64,000 bases of DNA from a virus. Position 1 is the first letter of the stretch, and every line of letters starts with the position of its first letter. The stretch lies in the IMG/VR virus record IMGVR_UViG_3300026076_000001; one strand, 5' to 3'. A model generated the notes under the pieces. That model had not been told where the DNA came from, made no database searches, and worked only from the letters and a program-made list of their open reading frames with translations. Both the position numbers and the translations under genes were made by a program. Below, piece by piece: positions 52,845 to 64,000 of this stretch.

Positions 52845-53494
52845 TTTGATAGTTTAATACTGTAGATTCCGTTGTCCAATTCGGATGGAACAAAATTCAT
52901 AGAGATAGAGACTCTAGTAACATCCTCTTTCAAGGTTAGTGTCTCGTGGGTGAGTTCACTAGACCAGAGGAATAGTATACCCTCATCAGGCATCATCGTC
53001 AAGGTTTCAGAGTTGTACATATTCTGTTCCCTTGGATCGGTCCTCAAATAAGGATCATTCTTTTCAATTCCTGGCGAGTGTACTGTCCATCCCTGTGCTC
53101 CTGGTGGGAAGTTCAGGTAATATGTACCAGACACAAAGGAATTACCGTGACTGTGTTTGAATTGATACCCACCCTTTCGAGTGATATTAACCCAACACTC
53201 CGTGATGAAATGATCCTTAGTCATATCCCAGTTGTATACATCTTGAGTAAAGTCTACATATGATTCACTCAAAAACTTCTCAAATTCTTTGACAACTGGA
53301 TGGTCTACATCCAGAAGACTTTCCTTAGAATTATTCCAGAAGTGTACGATGTCAGGAGATATAGCATTGTGTTCTGCATCTCTCTTAGCAGTTAGTTCCT
53401 GTACTAACGACCTTAATTCTACGTGTGGTTCCTTCTCCCATCGATAGATACCCAATGGTTTAGGAAACAGACTAACAACTTGTACTCTTTTCAT
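52841..53494 (-). CDS. 2OG-Fe(II) oxygenase (HxH type), tandem copy 1
   Basis: CWVNITRKGGYQFKHSHGNSFVSGTYY...LFLWSSELTH...RVSISMN. Confidence 0.88.
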   Translation of the reverse strand: MKRVQVVSLFPKPLGIYRWEKEPHVELRSLVQELTAKRDAEHNAISPDIVHFWNNSKESLLDVDHPVVKEFEKFLSESYVDFTQDVYNWDMTKDHFITECWVNITRKGGYQFKHSHGNSFVSGTYYLNFPPGAQGWTVHSPGIEKNDPYLRTDPREQNMYNSETLTMMPDEGILFLWSSELTHETLTLKEDVTRVSISMNFVPSELDNGIYSIKLSK

Positions 53495-54186
53495 TCTCTT
53501 GTTACCCTAAAATAATATCCACCAGCAGAGAATACCTTAGGCATAAAGTTCATAGAAACAGATACCCTTACAGACTGAGGACCAGTAGGTTCAGTATAAT
53601 GTAAGAGATTACCTGGCCATAGCTTCAGTTCACCTTCTGCTGCTTCACCATTCATCTGCATACAATTAAACTCAGTAGGTTTCCCTTGCTGAGTTCCTAT
53701 GTATGGTCTAGCAGGTGCAGACGCAGGGTTCTGAAATATAATATCACCAGGTGCACCTTCCATATGCACATAATATGTACCAGATACAATTGCATTAGCG
53801 TGTGAGTGTACTACTTGAGTACCACCTGGCTGAGTTACATTAACCCAACAGTCAGTAATGAATGCATCTTGTGTACTCTGCCAACCCTGTACATCTATAA
53901 GAAAATCAGAGTAGCATTCTCCTAACCACTTGGTAAAGTAATCAAAGATAGGACCATTATTATCATACAATAGATGCTCTCCATTCTTCTGATAATAATG
54001 TGATAGATTCTTAGAGAAATGATTCTTAAACGTCATCTTATTCTGATTACGTTGCTTATAATCTTCCATCGCTTCTCTAACAGCGACCTTTAACTCCTCG
54101 TGCTTACTCGGATCTGGCATCTTATAGGTGCCAAGAGGAGTAGAGAACATAGGGCAGACAGATTGTCTATTAGGATCTATTCTCAT
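53491..54186 (-). CDS. 2OG-Fe(II) oxygenase (HxH type), tandem copy 2
   Basis: CWVNVTQPGGTQVVHSHANAIVSGTYY...LWPGNLLH...RVSVSMN. Confidence 0.88.
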   Translation of the reverse strand: MRIDPNRQSVCPMFSTPLGTYKMPDPSKHEELKVAVREAMEDYKQRNQNKMTFKNHFSKNLSHYYQKNGEHLLYDNNGPIFDYFTKWLGECYSDFLIDVQGWQSTQDAFITDCWVNVTQPGGTQVVHSHANAIVSGTYYVHMEGAPGDIIFQNPASAPARPYIGTQQGKPTEFNCMQMNGEAAEGELKLWPGNLLHYTEPTGPQSVRVSVSMNFMPKVFSAGGYYFRVTRE

Positions 54187-54890
54187 AGGTCAGTTGATTT
54201 CAATAACTTGGATACAATCTCCTGATCGTGCTTAACAACCTTGAAATTATAAGCACCCGCTAAGAATTCCTGTGGCATAAAGTTCATAGAAATAGAAACT
54301 CTAGTGGCATTGCCCTTAGTAGGTGTAGTCATATGTGATAGATTACTTGGCCACAAAATAAGATACTGCTCTTTACAGTTACCGAAGTGTTGTGACTCAT
54401 TATAAATCGTGGCTTTACAATTGTCAAACCCCATATAGGGTCTGTTAGCCATTGAAATAGGATTAATATACATTATCTCTCCAGCACCCTCTTCCATATG
54501 GAGGTAGTATGTACCAGAGACAAATGAATTAGCGTGAGAATGTAGTACCTGACTACCACCCTCCTTAGTAACGTTGACCCAACAGTCTGTGATATATGAT
54601 TTTTCTGTGACCATCCAACCTTGTACGTTTGTCACGTAGTCAGCATAACATTCCTCCAACCAGTCGTGATAGTGTTGGAAGATTGGATCGTCGTTGTCGT
54701 AGAGTAAATGCTCTTTGGTATGCTGATAGAAGTGAGTTAGATTTTCTGTGTAATCACTCTTACCAGGTTGTACCTTTTTAATTGCTTGCCTAGTTGCCTC
54801 AAGTAGTTCCTTATGTTTGTCATCAGGATACTTATAGTATGCTAACGGCAATGCAAATATAGGTTCAACTAGTTCCGCTTTCACTGTCAT
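54183..54890 (-). CDS. 2OG-Fe(II) oxygenase (HxH type), tandem copy 3
   Basis: CWVNVTKEGGSQVLHSHANSFVSGTYY...LWPSNLSH...RVSISMN. Confidence 0.88.
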   Translation of the reverse strand: MTVKAELVEPIFALPLAYYKYPDDKHKELLEATRQAIKKVQPGKSDYTENLTHFYQHTKEHLLYDNDDPIFQHYHDWLEECYADYVTNVQGWMVTEKSYITDCWVNVTKEGGSQVLHSHANSFVSGTYYLHMEEGAGEIMYINPISMANRPYMGFDNCKATIYNESQHFGNCKEQYLILWPSNLSHMTTPTKGNATRVSISMNFMPQEFLAGAYNFKVVKHDQEIVSKLLKSTDL

Positions 54891-55222: not shown

Positions 55223-55355
55223 AAGAAGATTTAATTAGTGCTTCGGGTGGTGTAGCTGCTCTGTAAGCATCGACATCCGAATATACCTCCGATTCTAACA
55301 CATTTAGCAGAGATTTCAAGTCTTTTACGACGGTCTTTAGTTTTGTTTTGTCCAT
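55185..55355 (-). CDS. Small conserved cyanophage hypothetical protein (56 aa)
   Basis: Read by hand: MDKTKLKTVVKDLKSLLNVLESEVYSDVDAY...DDDGYTD. Confidence 0.7.
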   Translation of the reverse strand: MDKTKLKTVVKDLKSLLNVLESEVYSDVDAYRAATPPEALIKSSYELLQDDDGYTD

Positions 55356-55384
55356 TTTGTTCCCACTTTAACTATGTAGGTCAT

Positions 55385-55411
55385 AAAAAAAGACCCCTAT
55401 TTAGGGGTCTT
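55385..55411 (-). terminator. Intrinsic terminator after the DUF4278 gene
   Basis: AGACCCCT-AAAT-AGGGGTCT stem followed by a T-tract on the minus strand. Confidence 0.85.
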
Positions 55412-55415
55412 AAAG

Positions 55416-55538
55416 TTAAGCAGCAACTGCTTTGCTGTTGTGCTTGACACCTCTGTAAGTCAGTTCTGACTTAATAGATGTGTTGGACTTGCGTGAATCG
55501 GTGTCATACTCGACACCACGGTAAGTGACTTTTGCCAT
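55416..55538 (-). CDS. DUF4278-family peptide (40 aa)
   Basis: Read by hand: MAKVTYRGVEYDTDSRKSNTSIKSELTYRGVKHNSKAVAA, with two (L/V)TYRGV motifs. GGAGA SD lies 6 nt upstream. Confidence 0.9.
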   Translation of the reverse strand: MAKVTYRGVEYDTDSRKSNTSIKSELTYRGVKHNSKAVAA

Positions 55539-55572
55539 TGGCTTTCTCCAAAGTAGTAGGGTGTTTTAAGTC

Positions 55573-55754
55573 CGTTCCTTTAGTCGGCTTTTGCGTCCCA
55601 ACATTCAGGTGTTTCTTCTATCACAACCAGAATCATTTCTGCTCGTGTCTCTTCCTCTACATTGAACTCATACATCTTATCGATAAGAAGTTGAGCATCA
55701 ACACAAGATAAAGTAGATGCAATAACTGCTAGATGAAACATACTGGGATGAACG
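55573..55754 (-). ncRNA. Glutamine-riboswitch-like aptamer 2 (Downstream-peptide type), split by an ORF
   Basis: 5' half CGUUCAUCCCA (55754-55744); 3' half UGGGACGCAAAAGCCGACUAAAGGAACG (55600-55573). P1 and P2 pair across a 143-nt insert. Confidence 0.7.
55580..55741 (-). CDS. 53-aa ORF embedded in the aptamer 2 loop
   Basis: Read by hand: MFHLAVIASTLSCVDAQLLIDKMYEFNVEEETRAEMILVVIEETPECWDAKAD*. The last codons and the stop are the aptamer 3' half. Confidence 0.7.
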   Translation of the reverse strand: MFHLAVIASTLSCVDAQLLIDKMYEFNVEEETRAEMILVVIEETPECWDAKAD

Positions 55755-55757
55755 ATC

Positions 55758-55799
55758 CGTTCCGAGTCGGCTTACTTGCGTCCCCAAAGGGGATGAACG
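55758..55799 (-). ncRNA. Glutamine-riboswitch-like aptamer 1 (compact)
   Basis: CGUUCAUCCCCUUUGGGGACGCAAGUAAGCCGACUCGGAACG: P1 CGUUC/GAACG, P2 UCCCC/GGGGA, and the conserved GACGCAA/GCCGAC segments. Confidence 0.8.
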
Positions 55800-55824
55800 T
55801 ATGTGTTAATACTAACACAGGTAT

Positions 55825-55877: not shown

Positions 55878-56426
55878 CTATCCACCTAAAGCTGTATCAT
55901 TAGGGTTGACTGCCATAGATGGAAGTGGTACTCCTTGAGTCATTCTTTGACCTGGTGTTGACCACTGCTTACCTTGTGGTTTAGGTGTTGAAGTTCTATT
56001 ACCCCATTCAATCTGAGGGAATGCTTCTTTAACTACGTTCTCTGTAATTCTAAATTTTTTCTTAAGGTTCTTATCCTTAACTAGACAGACTACCTCTGCC
56101 TCAGATTCGTGTAGCCCTTCTAGAAGACCTACAAACATTGTCTCTCTTTTTAAACTAGAAAGAGAATCAGCACCACCCTTTACAAAGTAGTGAAGAATTC
56201 TATGCTCTGTACTAAGTTGAGAATGTTCTGTTCCAGGAGGTGCTTCGTTTGGTTTGTAAGGTACAGCACCTTCTGGTAAAGCAGATTCGATACTAGGATC
56301 GAAGTTCATAATCAAAACCTTTCTAAGAGCATTACTATTATGCTCCCGTAAAAGATTAATCTTTGCTGCCTTGGTCTTAGCATTGCTAACCTTTTGTAGC
56401 ACTTCAGAAATTAATAGTTCAGCCAT
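55878..56426 (-). CDS. Conserved T4-like cyanophage hypothetical protein
   Basis: LLISEVLQKVSNAKTK..K..LL....S.ALR.VL..NFD.SI...LPEG.VPY..N.AP.GTEH..L..E...L.YFVKGG...L....RE.MF..LLEGLH..EA.V.CL.KDK. Confidence 0.8.
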   Translation of the reverse strand: MAELLISEVLQKVSNAKTKAAKINLLREHNSNALRKVLIMNFDPSIESALPEGAVPYKPNEAPPGTEHSQLSTEHRILHYFVKGGADSLSSLKRETMFVGLLEGLHESEAEVVCLVKDKNLKKKFRITENVVKEAFPQIEWGNRTSTPKPQGKQWSTPGQRMTQGVPLPSMAVNPNDTALGG

Positions 56427-56694: not shown

Positions 56695-56979
56695 TTAGAC
56701 CAACCCGATGGATTTAAAATGGCGTGCTGCCTCTACTAGACCTCCTAAATTCTTACCATTGTATACTATCTGAGGAAATGTTACAGTCTGTACTTTGAGT
56801 TCAGATAACACTTGTTCTCTGGTGATATCCCTATTCAATAGCATTTCATTGTAATCAACTTTAGATCTATTCAAAAGTTCTTTAGCTAGAGTACAATACT
56901 TACAACCATCCATAGTATAAAGAGTAGTTGTCTTACGTGGATCAAATGTCATTAGGTCCTCGTTGAAATGTATATCCAT
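56695..56979 (-). CDS. Glutaredoxin
   Basis: TLYT..GCKYC..AK.LL, TFPQI, LGG; the start may be at 56952. Confidence 0.9.
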   Translation of the reverse strand: MDIHFNEDLMTFDPRKTTTLYTMDGCKYCTLAKELLNRSKVDYNEMLLNRDITREQVLSELKVQTVTFPQIVYNGKNLGGLVEAARHFKSIGLV

Positions 56980-63829: not shown

Positions 63830-63904
63830 TGTAGTGGGTGTGGGAGGTTGGATTAATGTGTACCAACAAGTAAGGGGCATTGCTACATTAGTAGATTTTT
63901 ACCT

Positions 63905-63995
63905 TACTATCTGAGACCCGACTGGTAAGTCGATTCACGTTTTCAACGTGCAGCACCACCTGTGTCTCATCACCTTAACTAGCCTTATGCCAGCA
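63905..63995 (-). ncRNA. Structured RNA resembling the cyanophage wcaG motif
   Basis: GAGAC/GUCUC closing stem, UGGUG, and internal hairpins CACGU-UGAAA-ACGUG and CGACU-UACC-AGUCG. Lies upstream of the hli region; family name recalled, not searched. Confidence 0.6.
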
Positions 63996-64000
63996 AGTTT

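Follow-up and report, generated by a model that had tools for sequence, protein, structure and literature searches.

Riboswitch aptamers are usually treated as compact, non-coding domains. Here we describe a virus locus in which a conserved gene lies inside a predicted aptamer helix and shares nucleotides with the ligand-binding core. The locus occupies positions 55799-55573, on the minus strand, of a 64,000-nucleotide (nt) stretch of the IMG/VR virus record IMGVR_UViG_3300026076_000001, hereafter the window. On this strand a first CGUUC (55799-55795) is followed by A, the hairpin UCCCC/GGGGA (55793-55781), CGCAAGUAAGCCGACUC and GGAACG (55763-55758); after the linker GAU come a second CGUUC (55754-55750), A, UCCCA (55748-55744), GU and, at 55741, the AUG of a 53-codon open reading frame (ORF). 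The distal half of the second unit lies 143 nt past UCCCA and consists of UGGGA (55600-55596), CGCAAAAGCCGACUAAA and GGAACG (55578-55573). A preliminary description of this DNA had drawn the same layout, and every element was found on the minus strand where it had been placed.

The locus forms the leader and the first cistron of a phage transcription unit that is complete in itself and about 410 nt long, comprising a promoter, a sensor with a nested gene, a gene for a DUF4278 peptide and a terminator. Comparison with known RNA families suggests that the leader senses glutamine through two cores of the type-1 (glnA RNA) kind, which are probably interlaced and share one helix. Both cores are the only such cores in the whole 110-kb IMG/VR record, and by BLAST the region occurs in 226 records of Synechococcus and Prochlorococcus phages.

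The second hairpin and its gene

Relatives of the leader were collected by an exact scan of IMG/VR for the junction GGAACGGAUCGUUCA, which gave at least 120 loci and, from these, 107 distinct leaders; all leader counts below rest on the matches listed. The hairpins that follow the first and the second CGUUCA are termed P1a(1) and P1a(2). Among the 107 leaders, loop lengths of the second hairpin are bimodal, either 12-43 nt or 138-203 nt, and every long loop is filled by an ORF with an ATG start. Thirty-eight leaders have a compact first hairpin and an ORF in the second, 36 are compact in both, 19 carry an ORF in the first hairpin and a compact second, and 10 carry ORFs in both. The first hairpin could not be identified in the remaining four, three of which hold an ORF in the second, bringing the leaders with an ORF in P1a(2) to 51 (the ORF-bearing leaders below); the P1a(1) loop holds an ORF in 29 of 103 relatives. 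Phage P-SSM2 has the layout of the window, and P-HM1 has ORFs in both hairpins.

Some further observations concern the distribution of these forms. Many ORF-free leaders (e.g. L002:451-472, L017, L088) have as their second hairpin a 22-nt element, UUCGCUAU and AUAGCGAA around six variable bases, which also serves as the first hairpin of many ORF-bearing ones; its sequence is conserved beyond what a plain stem would need. Contigs from RNA libraries (runs X16 and X18) skip 139-158 nt between the strands of the second hairpin (55599-55758) and carry 10-24 other letters there, which indicates that ORF-free relatives of the leader co-occur in the same marine samples. A scan of a genome collection with a 15-mer junction yielded one real motif (L206) among the 120 matches listed, the others being chance, and is uninformative on hosts; L206 carries ORFs in both hairpins and possibly represents a phage contig that was binned with a bacterial genome.

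In the window, P1a(2) consists of nine contiguous pairs, two of them G.U, between UCCCAGUAU (55748-55740), which holds the A and U of the inner start codon, and AUGUUGGGA (55604-55596), which also encodes part of E-C-W-D. The pairing of UCCCA with UGGGA around the ORF, as set out in the preliminary description, is real, and the helix is longer than had been seen there. Pairing across the leaders was counted with anchored coordinates, since MAFFT lost the register of the 5' strand. The basal positions 1-5 are paired in 51, 51, 51, 50 and 48 of the 51 ORF-bearing leaders, with two to five pair types per position and three to five at positions 3-5. Over six positions the paired fraction is 0.92, against a mean of 0.68 and a maximum of 0.77 in 2000 partner shuffles. 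More than eight different stems occur, each self-complementary, among them UCCCA/UGGGA, UCUAUGG/CCAUAGA, UCCUC/GAGGA, UUCUUA/UGAGAA, UCUUAU/AUAAGA and GAUUAUGG/CCAUAAUC. Covariation had been named as a check on both long-range helices: the hairpin stem (the P2 of the preliminary description, here P1a(2)) does covary, while P1 is invariant and so uninformative. A chance origin of the layout is ruled out by its recurrence, by the shuffle test and by the protein-profile hits.

The inner gene (55741-55580, with AUG at 55741-55739 and the stop codon UAA at 55582-55580) encodes a 53-residue microprotein of the phrog_504 family, to which it aligns with an E-value of 9.2e-11 (residues 6-51 on profile positions 5-52 of 53). 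It starts exactly 2 nt after UCCCA, fills the loop and ends in W-D-A-K-A-D within the 3' half of the aptamer, just as first described, and no Shine-Dalgarno sequence precedes it. Its last codons, UGG GAC GCA AAA GCC GAC UAA, are as RNA UGGGA, CGCAAA and AGCCGACU, with AAAG-GAACG-G next, to 55572. The last six codons and the stop are thereby the 3' strand of the hairpin, a linking strand and one strand of a third helix, P3. At the other end, the AUG lies 3-7 nt past CGUUCA in all 51 ORF-bearing leaders and has at least one base within the P1a(2) stem in 48; the stop falls within a strand complementary to the Shine-Dalgarno region of the next gene, here called the anti-Shine-Dalgarno strand, in 46 of the 51.

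Judged by its pattern of divergence, the inner ORF is a genuine gene. In 93 pairwise comparisons that left out the two initial and the six final codons, the median ratio of nonsynonymous to synonymous substitution rates (dN/dS) was 0.22, as for a conserved gene under purifying selection, and differences at the three codon positions numbered 1080/515/1593, an excess at the third. Two cysteines (Cys13 and Cys47) never vary among 46 proteins whose identity to that of the window is only 21-79%. A profile search returned 540 clusters, none with a credible name; the protein matched no Pfam family and, in a Foldseek search of the PDB, no structure with E <=0.001, and its matches in the ESM Atlas were unnamed viral clusters only. 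AlphaFold2 predicts a small helical protein with a mean pLDDT (predicted local distance difference test score) of 78.

The protein-profile matches, which were not selected by RNA motif, bear on the relation of gene and RNA. All 120 listed end in DAxxD, encoded by the core sequence GAC GCA AAA GCC GAC, and over-long gene calls among them begin with a translation of core 1; from these sequences, the inner-gene family appears to be tied to this RNA among the profile matches listed. Leaders without an ORF conserve the core sequence to the same degree, so it is the RNA that sets the constraint there. A non-coding reading of the frame was ruled out by the dN/dS of 0.22, the 540 clusters and the DAxxD profile matches.

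The ORFs of the first hairpin are distant homologues of the inner protein (hhalign 96%, E 4e-9), and searched against Pfam they gave chance-level matches only. One subfamily of them (L023, L034, L052, L056, L058 and others) starts MTKALLLLAWVPLLS..., by eye resembling a Sec signal, with both cysteines kept, and some first-hairpin microproteins may, on this sequence resemblance, be exported and disulfide-bonded. For the protein of the window, a lipoprotein or signal-peptide reading was rejected by eye, the cysteine lying too near the N-terminus in many relatives (position 8).

The third helix and the two cores

The strands that join the hairpins to the GGAACG elements are complementary to each other. 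In the window, the 5' strand of P3, AGCCGACU (55772-55765), pairs in trans with an identical sequence at 55589-55582, which also encodes part of K-A-D and the first base of the stop codon, giving six Watson-Crick pairs and two conserved C.A mismatches. In the common joiner type, 5'-AGCCGAC[X] faces 3'-UCAGCCG[Y], with X.Y being U-A in 63, G-C in 21 and A-U in 3, and 88 of 90 paired. Other joiner types are also complementary in trans, namely AGUCG/CGACU, AGUCA/UGACU, GGACGACG/CGCCGCCC, AGCCAACU/AGUUUGCU and GGCUAACG/CGUUGAGCU (the last also written GGCUAACG/CGUU(G)AGCU). Among 34 compact leaders the end pair of P3 is GC in 11, UA in 9 and AU in 3 and is never unpaired, and changes on both sides are seen at four of the eight P3 pairs. 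For the whole structure in these 34 leaders, 94.6% of cells are paired, versus 28-55% for slid partners, and the covariation score was matched by none of 500 shuffles. ORF-bearing leaders keep the complementarity (end pair U-A 43, G-C 2, plus the AGUCG and AGUCA types). The mini-hairpins within each unit that the Rfam alignment implies are, by contrast, unpaired in 16 of 26 and 14 of 23 compact leaders. Since the joiners covary in trans and the within-unit hairpins fail, the third helix is shared between the units, and two independent tandem aptamers, the arrangement first proposed for this locus, were rejected. Cross-pairing between the aptamer halves, which the preliminary description had offered as a source of extra states, does exist, but it is probably the main fold instead.

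The strands of the three-way junction are divided between the units in a consistent manner: unit 1 always has the GUA strand and lacks RAAG, and unit 2 is the reverse. For a type-1 junction to be complete, CGUUC(1) must pair with the distal GAACG and GAACG(1)-GAU-CGUUC(2) must form an inner hairpin. Only this interlaced fold makes the AAGUA strand of unit 1 face the RAAG strand of unit 2, the arrangement of the type-1 consensus. CGUUC(1) (55799-55795) would be the 5' strand of an outer P1, with GAACG at 55577-55573 as its proposed partner, and GGAACG-GAU-CGUUC (55763-55750) would form the inner helix P1' (GAACG with CGUUC) with a 3-nt loop. The minimum free energy (MFE) structure from RNAfold for the leader of the window contains both the outer P1 and the inner hairpin. 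With the interior of the ORF held single-stranded, the interlaced fold has -27.0 kcal/mol (the MFE), a state with the anti-Shine-Dalgarno helix -25.9 and the tandem fold -24.6. CGUUC(1) is invariant in all leaders, so its partner is not demonstrable by covariation.

The linker between the units measures 3-5 nt in 131 of 132 distinct leaders that were sampled without fixing it, and it starts with G in 130 of 131. By analogy, this loop G would correspond to the G of a long-range pair described for solved glutamine riboswitches in the structural account of PMC6698751. The one remaining leader, L301, has a linker of 23 nt with its own small hairpin between GGAACG and CGUUCA, which an extended loop of the inner hairpin would explain.

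How closely the cores resemble known glutamine riboswitches depends on which elements are compared. Both strands of the P1 of RF01739 (CGUUC with GAACG) are present twice and are invariant across all leaders. The hairpin after CGUUCA is closed by U-A and then followed by CG(C/G), and both P1a(1) and P1a(2) covary; for the compact hairpin of the outer core, P1a(1) (UCCCC-UUU-GGGGA, 55793-55781, from the sequence and the RF01739 alignment), the three basal pairs covary in the 34 compact leaders with 100% of cells paired. The next element, J1 (CGCAAGUA, 55780-55773), combines the linking strand CGC with the loop-E-type strand of the outer three-way junction and matches RF01739 consensus positions 23-30, CGGAAGUA; it is CGCAAGUA or CGGAAGUA in all 107 leaders. 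Its counterpart J2 (CGCAAA, 55595-55590), the linking strand of the inner core, also encodes part of D-A-K and is kept equally in leaders without the ORF. The AAAG junction strand, the GAACG that forms the 3' strand of the outer P1 and the following G (55581-55572) match consensus positions 41-49, GAAGGAACG, and this distal junction strand is GAAGGAACG in 82 and AAAGGAACG in 25 of the 107 leaders. The three-way junction itself, with AAGUA facing GAAG and a short third helix, is present only under the interlaced reading.

Scored by covariance models, the locus is borderline. An Rfam scan at gathering thresholds reported no glutamine riboswitch here. The compact first unit scores 33.8 bits (E 1.9e-5) with RF01739, below the gathering score of 35, and 28.9 bits with the type-2 model RF01704, below its gathering score of 33 and with non-canonical pairs in the 3' hairpin; no conserved type-2 pseudoknot hairpin around GGAACGG was found. 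The second, split unit is invisible to the Rfam model, which cannot score an interlaced or split form, so the expectation that a covariance scan would miss the split aptamer proved correct. The orthologous units of P-SSM2, S-PM2 and S-CREM1 score 35.1, 33.3 and 33.5 bits. In S-PM2 and S-CREM1 a plain 22-nt hairpin replaces the ORF at the same position, and they provide the insert-free form on which the preliminary description had suggested searching; this form is recognised at 33.3-33.5 bits, under the gathering score of 35. The identification of glutamine-riboswitch cores ahead of a DUF4278 gene otherwise stands, on the RF01739 match of the first unit and the Pfam match of the downstream gene given below. 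In their annotation of the S-CREM1 genome, its authors marked the whole 99-nt double unit as glnA. The inner core retains CGUUC, GGAACGG and the CGC linking strand, conserved nucleotides that make up the glutamine site of the solved type-2 structure; the structural account reports a virtually identical site in type 1 (PMC6698751). By analogy, two glutamine-binding sites in the leader are plausible.

The DUF4278 gene and the proposed switch

The DUF4278 gene (55538-55416) encodes a 40-residue, IF17-like peptide with two TYRGV repeats (Pfam PF14105, 28.4 bits against a cut-off of 25.3; phrog_5049), and it starts 41 nt beyond the inner ORF, behind a GGAG site. DUF4278 is linked to the glutamine-synthetase inactivating factor IF17 in the description of that factor's regulation (PMC6212724), and by analogy the peptide of the window is presumed to be a glutamine-synthetase inhibitor. 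The anti-Shine-Dalgarno strand, CUAAAG (55583-55578), consists of the last two bases of P3 followed by AAAG, the junction strand, and the inner stop UAA lies within it. The strand is complementary to CUUUGG (55553-55548), which overlaps the GGAG Shine-Dalgarno sequence of the DUF4278 gene (55549-55546), the two together spanning 55553-55546. Among 52 leaders whose 3' region is of this type, the CUAAAG/CUUUGG helix has 97.4% of its cells paired; one pair is UA in 28, UG in 15 and CG in 7, another is GU in 24, AU in 19 and GC in 9, and there is no A.C. RNAalifold predicts the helix independently. In five leaders (L031, L065, L080, L100 and L105), an extra structured insert, some 30 nt long (GAAUCACGGAUCCCUCG...GAGG...), stands past the last GGAACG and ahead of the Shine-Dalgarno site.

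A consensus scan places a sigma-70-type promoter directly upstream of the sensor (55837-55809), with TTGACT at 55837-55832, a 17-nt spacer and a TG-extended -10 box, TAGTAT, at 55814-55809. The predicted transcript start, taken from the position of the promoter, lies at about 55802-55800, directly at the sensor, and relatives have the same TTGACT and -10 layout. At the other end, a nine-pair stem followed by a T run (55411-55384) forms an intrinsic terminator that closes the unit. A perfect palindrome, GUGUUAGUAUUAACAC (55803-55818, minus strand), overlaps the -10 box; it fits GT-N10-AC, the minimal spacing of an NtcA box, and occurs also in P-SSM2 (L001) and L028, with GGTCTATAATAGACC at its place in other relatives. 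By analogy with gifA and gifB, NtcA bound at this position would repress.

The neighbourhood is typical of T4-like cyanophages, with a manA RNA, 2-oxoglutarate (2OG)-Fe(II) oxygenases and glutaredoxin. The manA RNA (RF01745, 130.2 bits) lies at 63837-64000 on the minus strand, its 5' part lost at the end of the window; two adjacent, overlapping, paralogous oxygenase genes (PF13759, 64 and 68 bits) occupy 53491-54890, minus strand, and a glutaredoxin gene lies at 56695-56979. The next gene upstream of the unit encodes a DUF6433 protein (55878-56426).

In three metatranscriptome studies there are contigs with a sequence identical to that of the window from 55571 to 55773, a span that links the sensor with the inner ORF. 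These RNA contigs are assembly unitigs, which break where many phages share the core, so that contig ends are not RNA ends; their coverage has gaps at 55300-55475 and upstream of 55916, and contigs end at 55773 in three runs. One such contig (55766-55916) joins the sensor to the upstream gene, by possible read-through or DNA carry-over.

One consequence follows directly from the anatomy of the leader: one mRNA cannot hold a folded sensor and a ribosome on the inner gene at the same time, since the start codon and the final six codons belong to the helix or the core. Given this overlap, a ribosome that initiates, elongates through the last 20 nt or terminates is incompatible with the folded sensor. 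The preliminary description had reasoned likewise that translation of the inner ORF would melt the second aptamer, and on these grounds the two cannot coexist. The direction of control may be sketched from gifB. In the passages of PMC6212724 that treat this gene, the postulated mechanism is that bound glutamine frees a ribosome-binding site otherwise blocked by pairing, and type-1 and type-2 glutamine riboswitches are presented as on-switches for DUF4278/IF17 genes (PMC6212724; PMC6698751). At high host glutamine, the sensor would fold once its 3' segment has been transcribed; the fold would hide the inner start, which has no Shine-Dalgarno sequence, and would hold CUAAAG, leaving the DUF4278 Shine-Dalgarno sequence free and the gene on, as in the gifB switch. 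At low glutamine, the sensor would be open and the inner gene translated, and CUAAAG would pair beside the DUF4278 ribosome-binding site. This site would then open only briefly, when a ribosome terminating on the UAA within CUAAAG melts the helix (translational coupling). The unit would in this way shift the ratio of two microproteins with the nitrogen status of the host.

We consider the architecture, a double sensor with interlaced cores and a nested gene, very likely to be correct. The regulatory logic is a more tentative proposal, about which we are somewhat doubtful; the two taken together nevertheless form the best explanation of the locus as a whole, and one that we judge probable. A still more speculative extension would be a two-input RNA device in which glutamine and ribosome traffic through the nested gene set the reciprocal output of a two-cysteine microprotein (low glutamine) and an IF17-like peptide (high glutamine), by which the phage would retune host nitrogen assimilation; the 'tandem' glutamine riboswitches of marine metagenomes would then be one interlaced, domain-swapped double aptamer.

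Several points weigh against this interpretation. P1 and P1' never vary, and covariation cannot separate an interlaced fold from tandem units with a kissing P3; the calculated energy gap between the two, about 2.4 kcal/mol, ignores tertiary contacts. The P3 of the window contains the two C.A mismatches, the z-score of the whole-leader fold is weak (-1.33), and the local units fall just short of the Rfam gathering score. Covariation in the anti-Shine-Dalgarno helix is modest, with one pair changed on both sides, and about a third of the relatives carry a different 3' leader, CUCUUUA...UAAGGAG. Efficient termination coupling would make DUF4278 at low glutamine too, blurring the toggle. The conserved frame and stop position could simply descend from one ancient insertion, and the contigs from RNA libraries may stem from carried-over DNA. 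That the RNA binds glutamine, how it folds and in which direction it controls its genes are computational predictions.

The main rival to the regulatory logic is that the inner gene is a passenger: P1a loops tolerate inserts, a small phage gene settled there for the strong early promoter, and the closing helix was kept only for control of DUF4278, with no selected interplay of translation and sensing. The loop of P1a varies freely in length and sequence in compact leaders, and close relatives carry ORFs in either, both or neither hairpin (38/36/19/10, in the order of the census above), as expected if the insert can be gained and lost; the inner protein, moreover, has no recognisable link to nitrogen metabolism. 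Against this, the ORF fills the loop entirely, with neither a spacer nor its own Shine-Dalgarno sequence, and it keeps its AUG 3-7 nt past CGUUCA in every one of the 51 leaders and its stop in the anti-Shine-Dalgarno strand in 46. The inner-gene family is also seen only in this RNA context among the profile matches listed, and physical competition with the fold is unavoidable even for a passenger. We regard this account as unlikely, though it deserves serious consideration.

The remaining rivals concern the fold. Each CGUUC could pair with its nearest GAACG, unit 2 doing so across the ORF, with the joiners forming a pseudoknot between the aptamers, comparable to the contacts between the aptamers of glycine riboswitches; the consequences of a gene in a loop would be the same. 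The invariance of P1 and P1' allows either partner, Rfam aligns each unit locally at 33-35 bits, and unit 1 can close during transcription before unit 2 exists, its local P1 having -11.9 kcal/mol versus -12.2 for the inner hairpin. Yet such kissing requires a pseudoknot where a plain nested fold gives the same pairs, and it deprives each unit of one strand of a type-1 junction, RAAG in unit 1 and GUA in unit 2. The linker, moreover, is sized like a hairpin loop (3-5 nt in 131 of 132 leaders), and the kissing arrangement is 2.4 kcal/mol worse in nearest-neighbour energy; we think it improbable. We give very little credence to the idea that the second core is a relic, such that in ORF-bearing phages the compact first unit alone senses glutamine as an ordinary leader of the inner gene and the distal half survives as coding and anti-Shine-Dalgarno sequence. 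The first unit alone does look like a full aptamer to Rfam, and the distal half is also under protein-coding constraint. Against this, the non-coding 5' and coding 3' strands of P1a(2) covary over more than eight stem variants, ORF-bearing leaders retain the P3 complementarity (U-A 43, G-C 2, and two further types, AGUCG and AGUCA), and at synonymous sites the distal core does not differ from the one in ORF-free leaders; the RAAG junction strand, moreover, is missing from the first unit taken by itself.

Significance and relation to known systems

In the full-text literature on glutamine riboswitches in cyanophages and other phages, tandem glnA RNAs, DUF4278 and ORFs within aptamers, no gene in an aptamer hairpin and no interlaced fold was found (Ames and Breaker 2011 and Ren et al. 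2015 lie outside this comparison). The passages on these RNAs in Weinberg 2010, Klahn 2018, Huang 2019 and the S-CREM1 and Melnitz papers mention tandem glnA RNAs and phage copies, and no nested gene. The layout is found in hundreds of abundant ocean and lake cyanophages. If the proposed reading is right, ribosome and metabolite compete directly for one RNA fold, in a system to which existing glutamine-riboswitch assays are applicable, and 'tandem' glutamine riboswitches may need redrawing as an interlaced double sensor. Phage riboswitches would be undercounted by covariance-model scans, the split unit being invisible to Rfam. phrog_504 and its relatives (540 clusters) would thereby be linked to nitrogen sensing, beside an IF17-like peptide, which bears on how cyanophages manage host nitrogen metabolism in infection.

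The closest known relative is the type-1 glutamine riboswitch (RF01739), for example the gifB leader of Synechocystis sp. PCC 6803, whose published consensus has the same strands: CGUUCA, a hairpin closed by U-A, CGSAAGUA, a short third helix, RAAG and GAACG (PMC6212724; PMC2864571). The kind of downstream gene (DUF4278) is also the same, as is, likely, the on-switch principle of releasing a pairing at the ribosome-binding site. Unlike the known type-1 elements, the phage element has two cores that share a third helix formed in trans, its local units score just under the gathering threshold, and one of its hairpins (either or both in relatives) holds a whole gene of 49-69 codons. The type-2 riboswitch (Downstream-peptide motif, RF01704) of marine Synechococcus and Prochlorococcus, as drawn in PMC6698751 and PMC6212724, shares CGUUCA, the hairpin, the CGCA linking strand and GGAACGG; in the phages' hosts it lies ahead of short DUF4278 ORFs, and the inner core, like type 2, lacks the loop-E strands. 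In contrast to type 2, the element described here has no H-type pseudoknot hairpin around GGAACGG, and it scores 28.9 bits where gathering requires 33.

Tandem glnA RNAs are mentioned in the survey of PMC2864571, and tandem riboswitches such as the two-aptamer glycine riboswitch likewise hold two ligand-binding cores in one leader, in contact with each other. Unlike in those, the cores here would be not serial but interlaced, through swapped P1 strands and a shared helix, of which covariation supports the shared helix only. Leader-peptide attenuators, such as the trp and phe leaders, also let the position of a ribosome on a short leader ORF decide downstream pairing. The ORF described here is instead a conserved 53-residue protein under purifying selection and not a codon-sensing peptide, and the structure that competes with the ribosome is a putative ligand-binding aptamer, with an output that is probably translational. 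Protein genes inside functional RNA folds are otherwise familiar from the homing-endonuclease and maturase genes in peripheral loops of phage group I and group II introns. There, too, the closing helix forms across the gene, and translation and folding interfere. In the phage leader, by contrast, the host RNA would be a metabolite sensor, nothing is spliced out, and the ends of the ORF are themselves nucleotides of the core.

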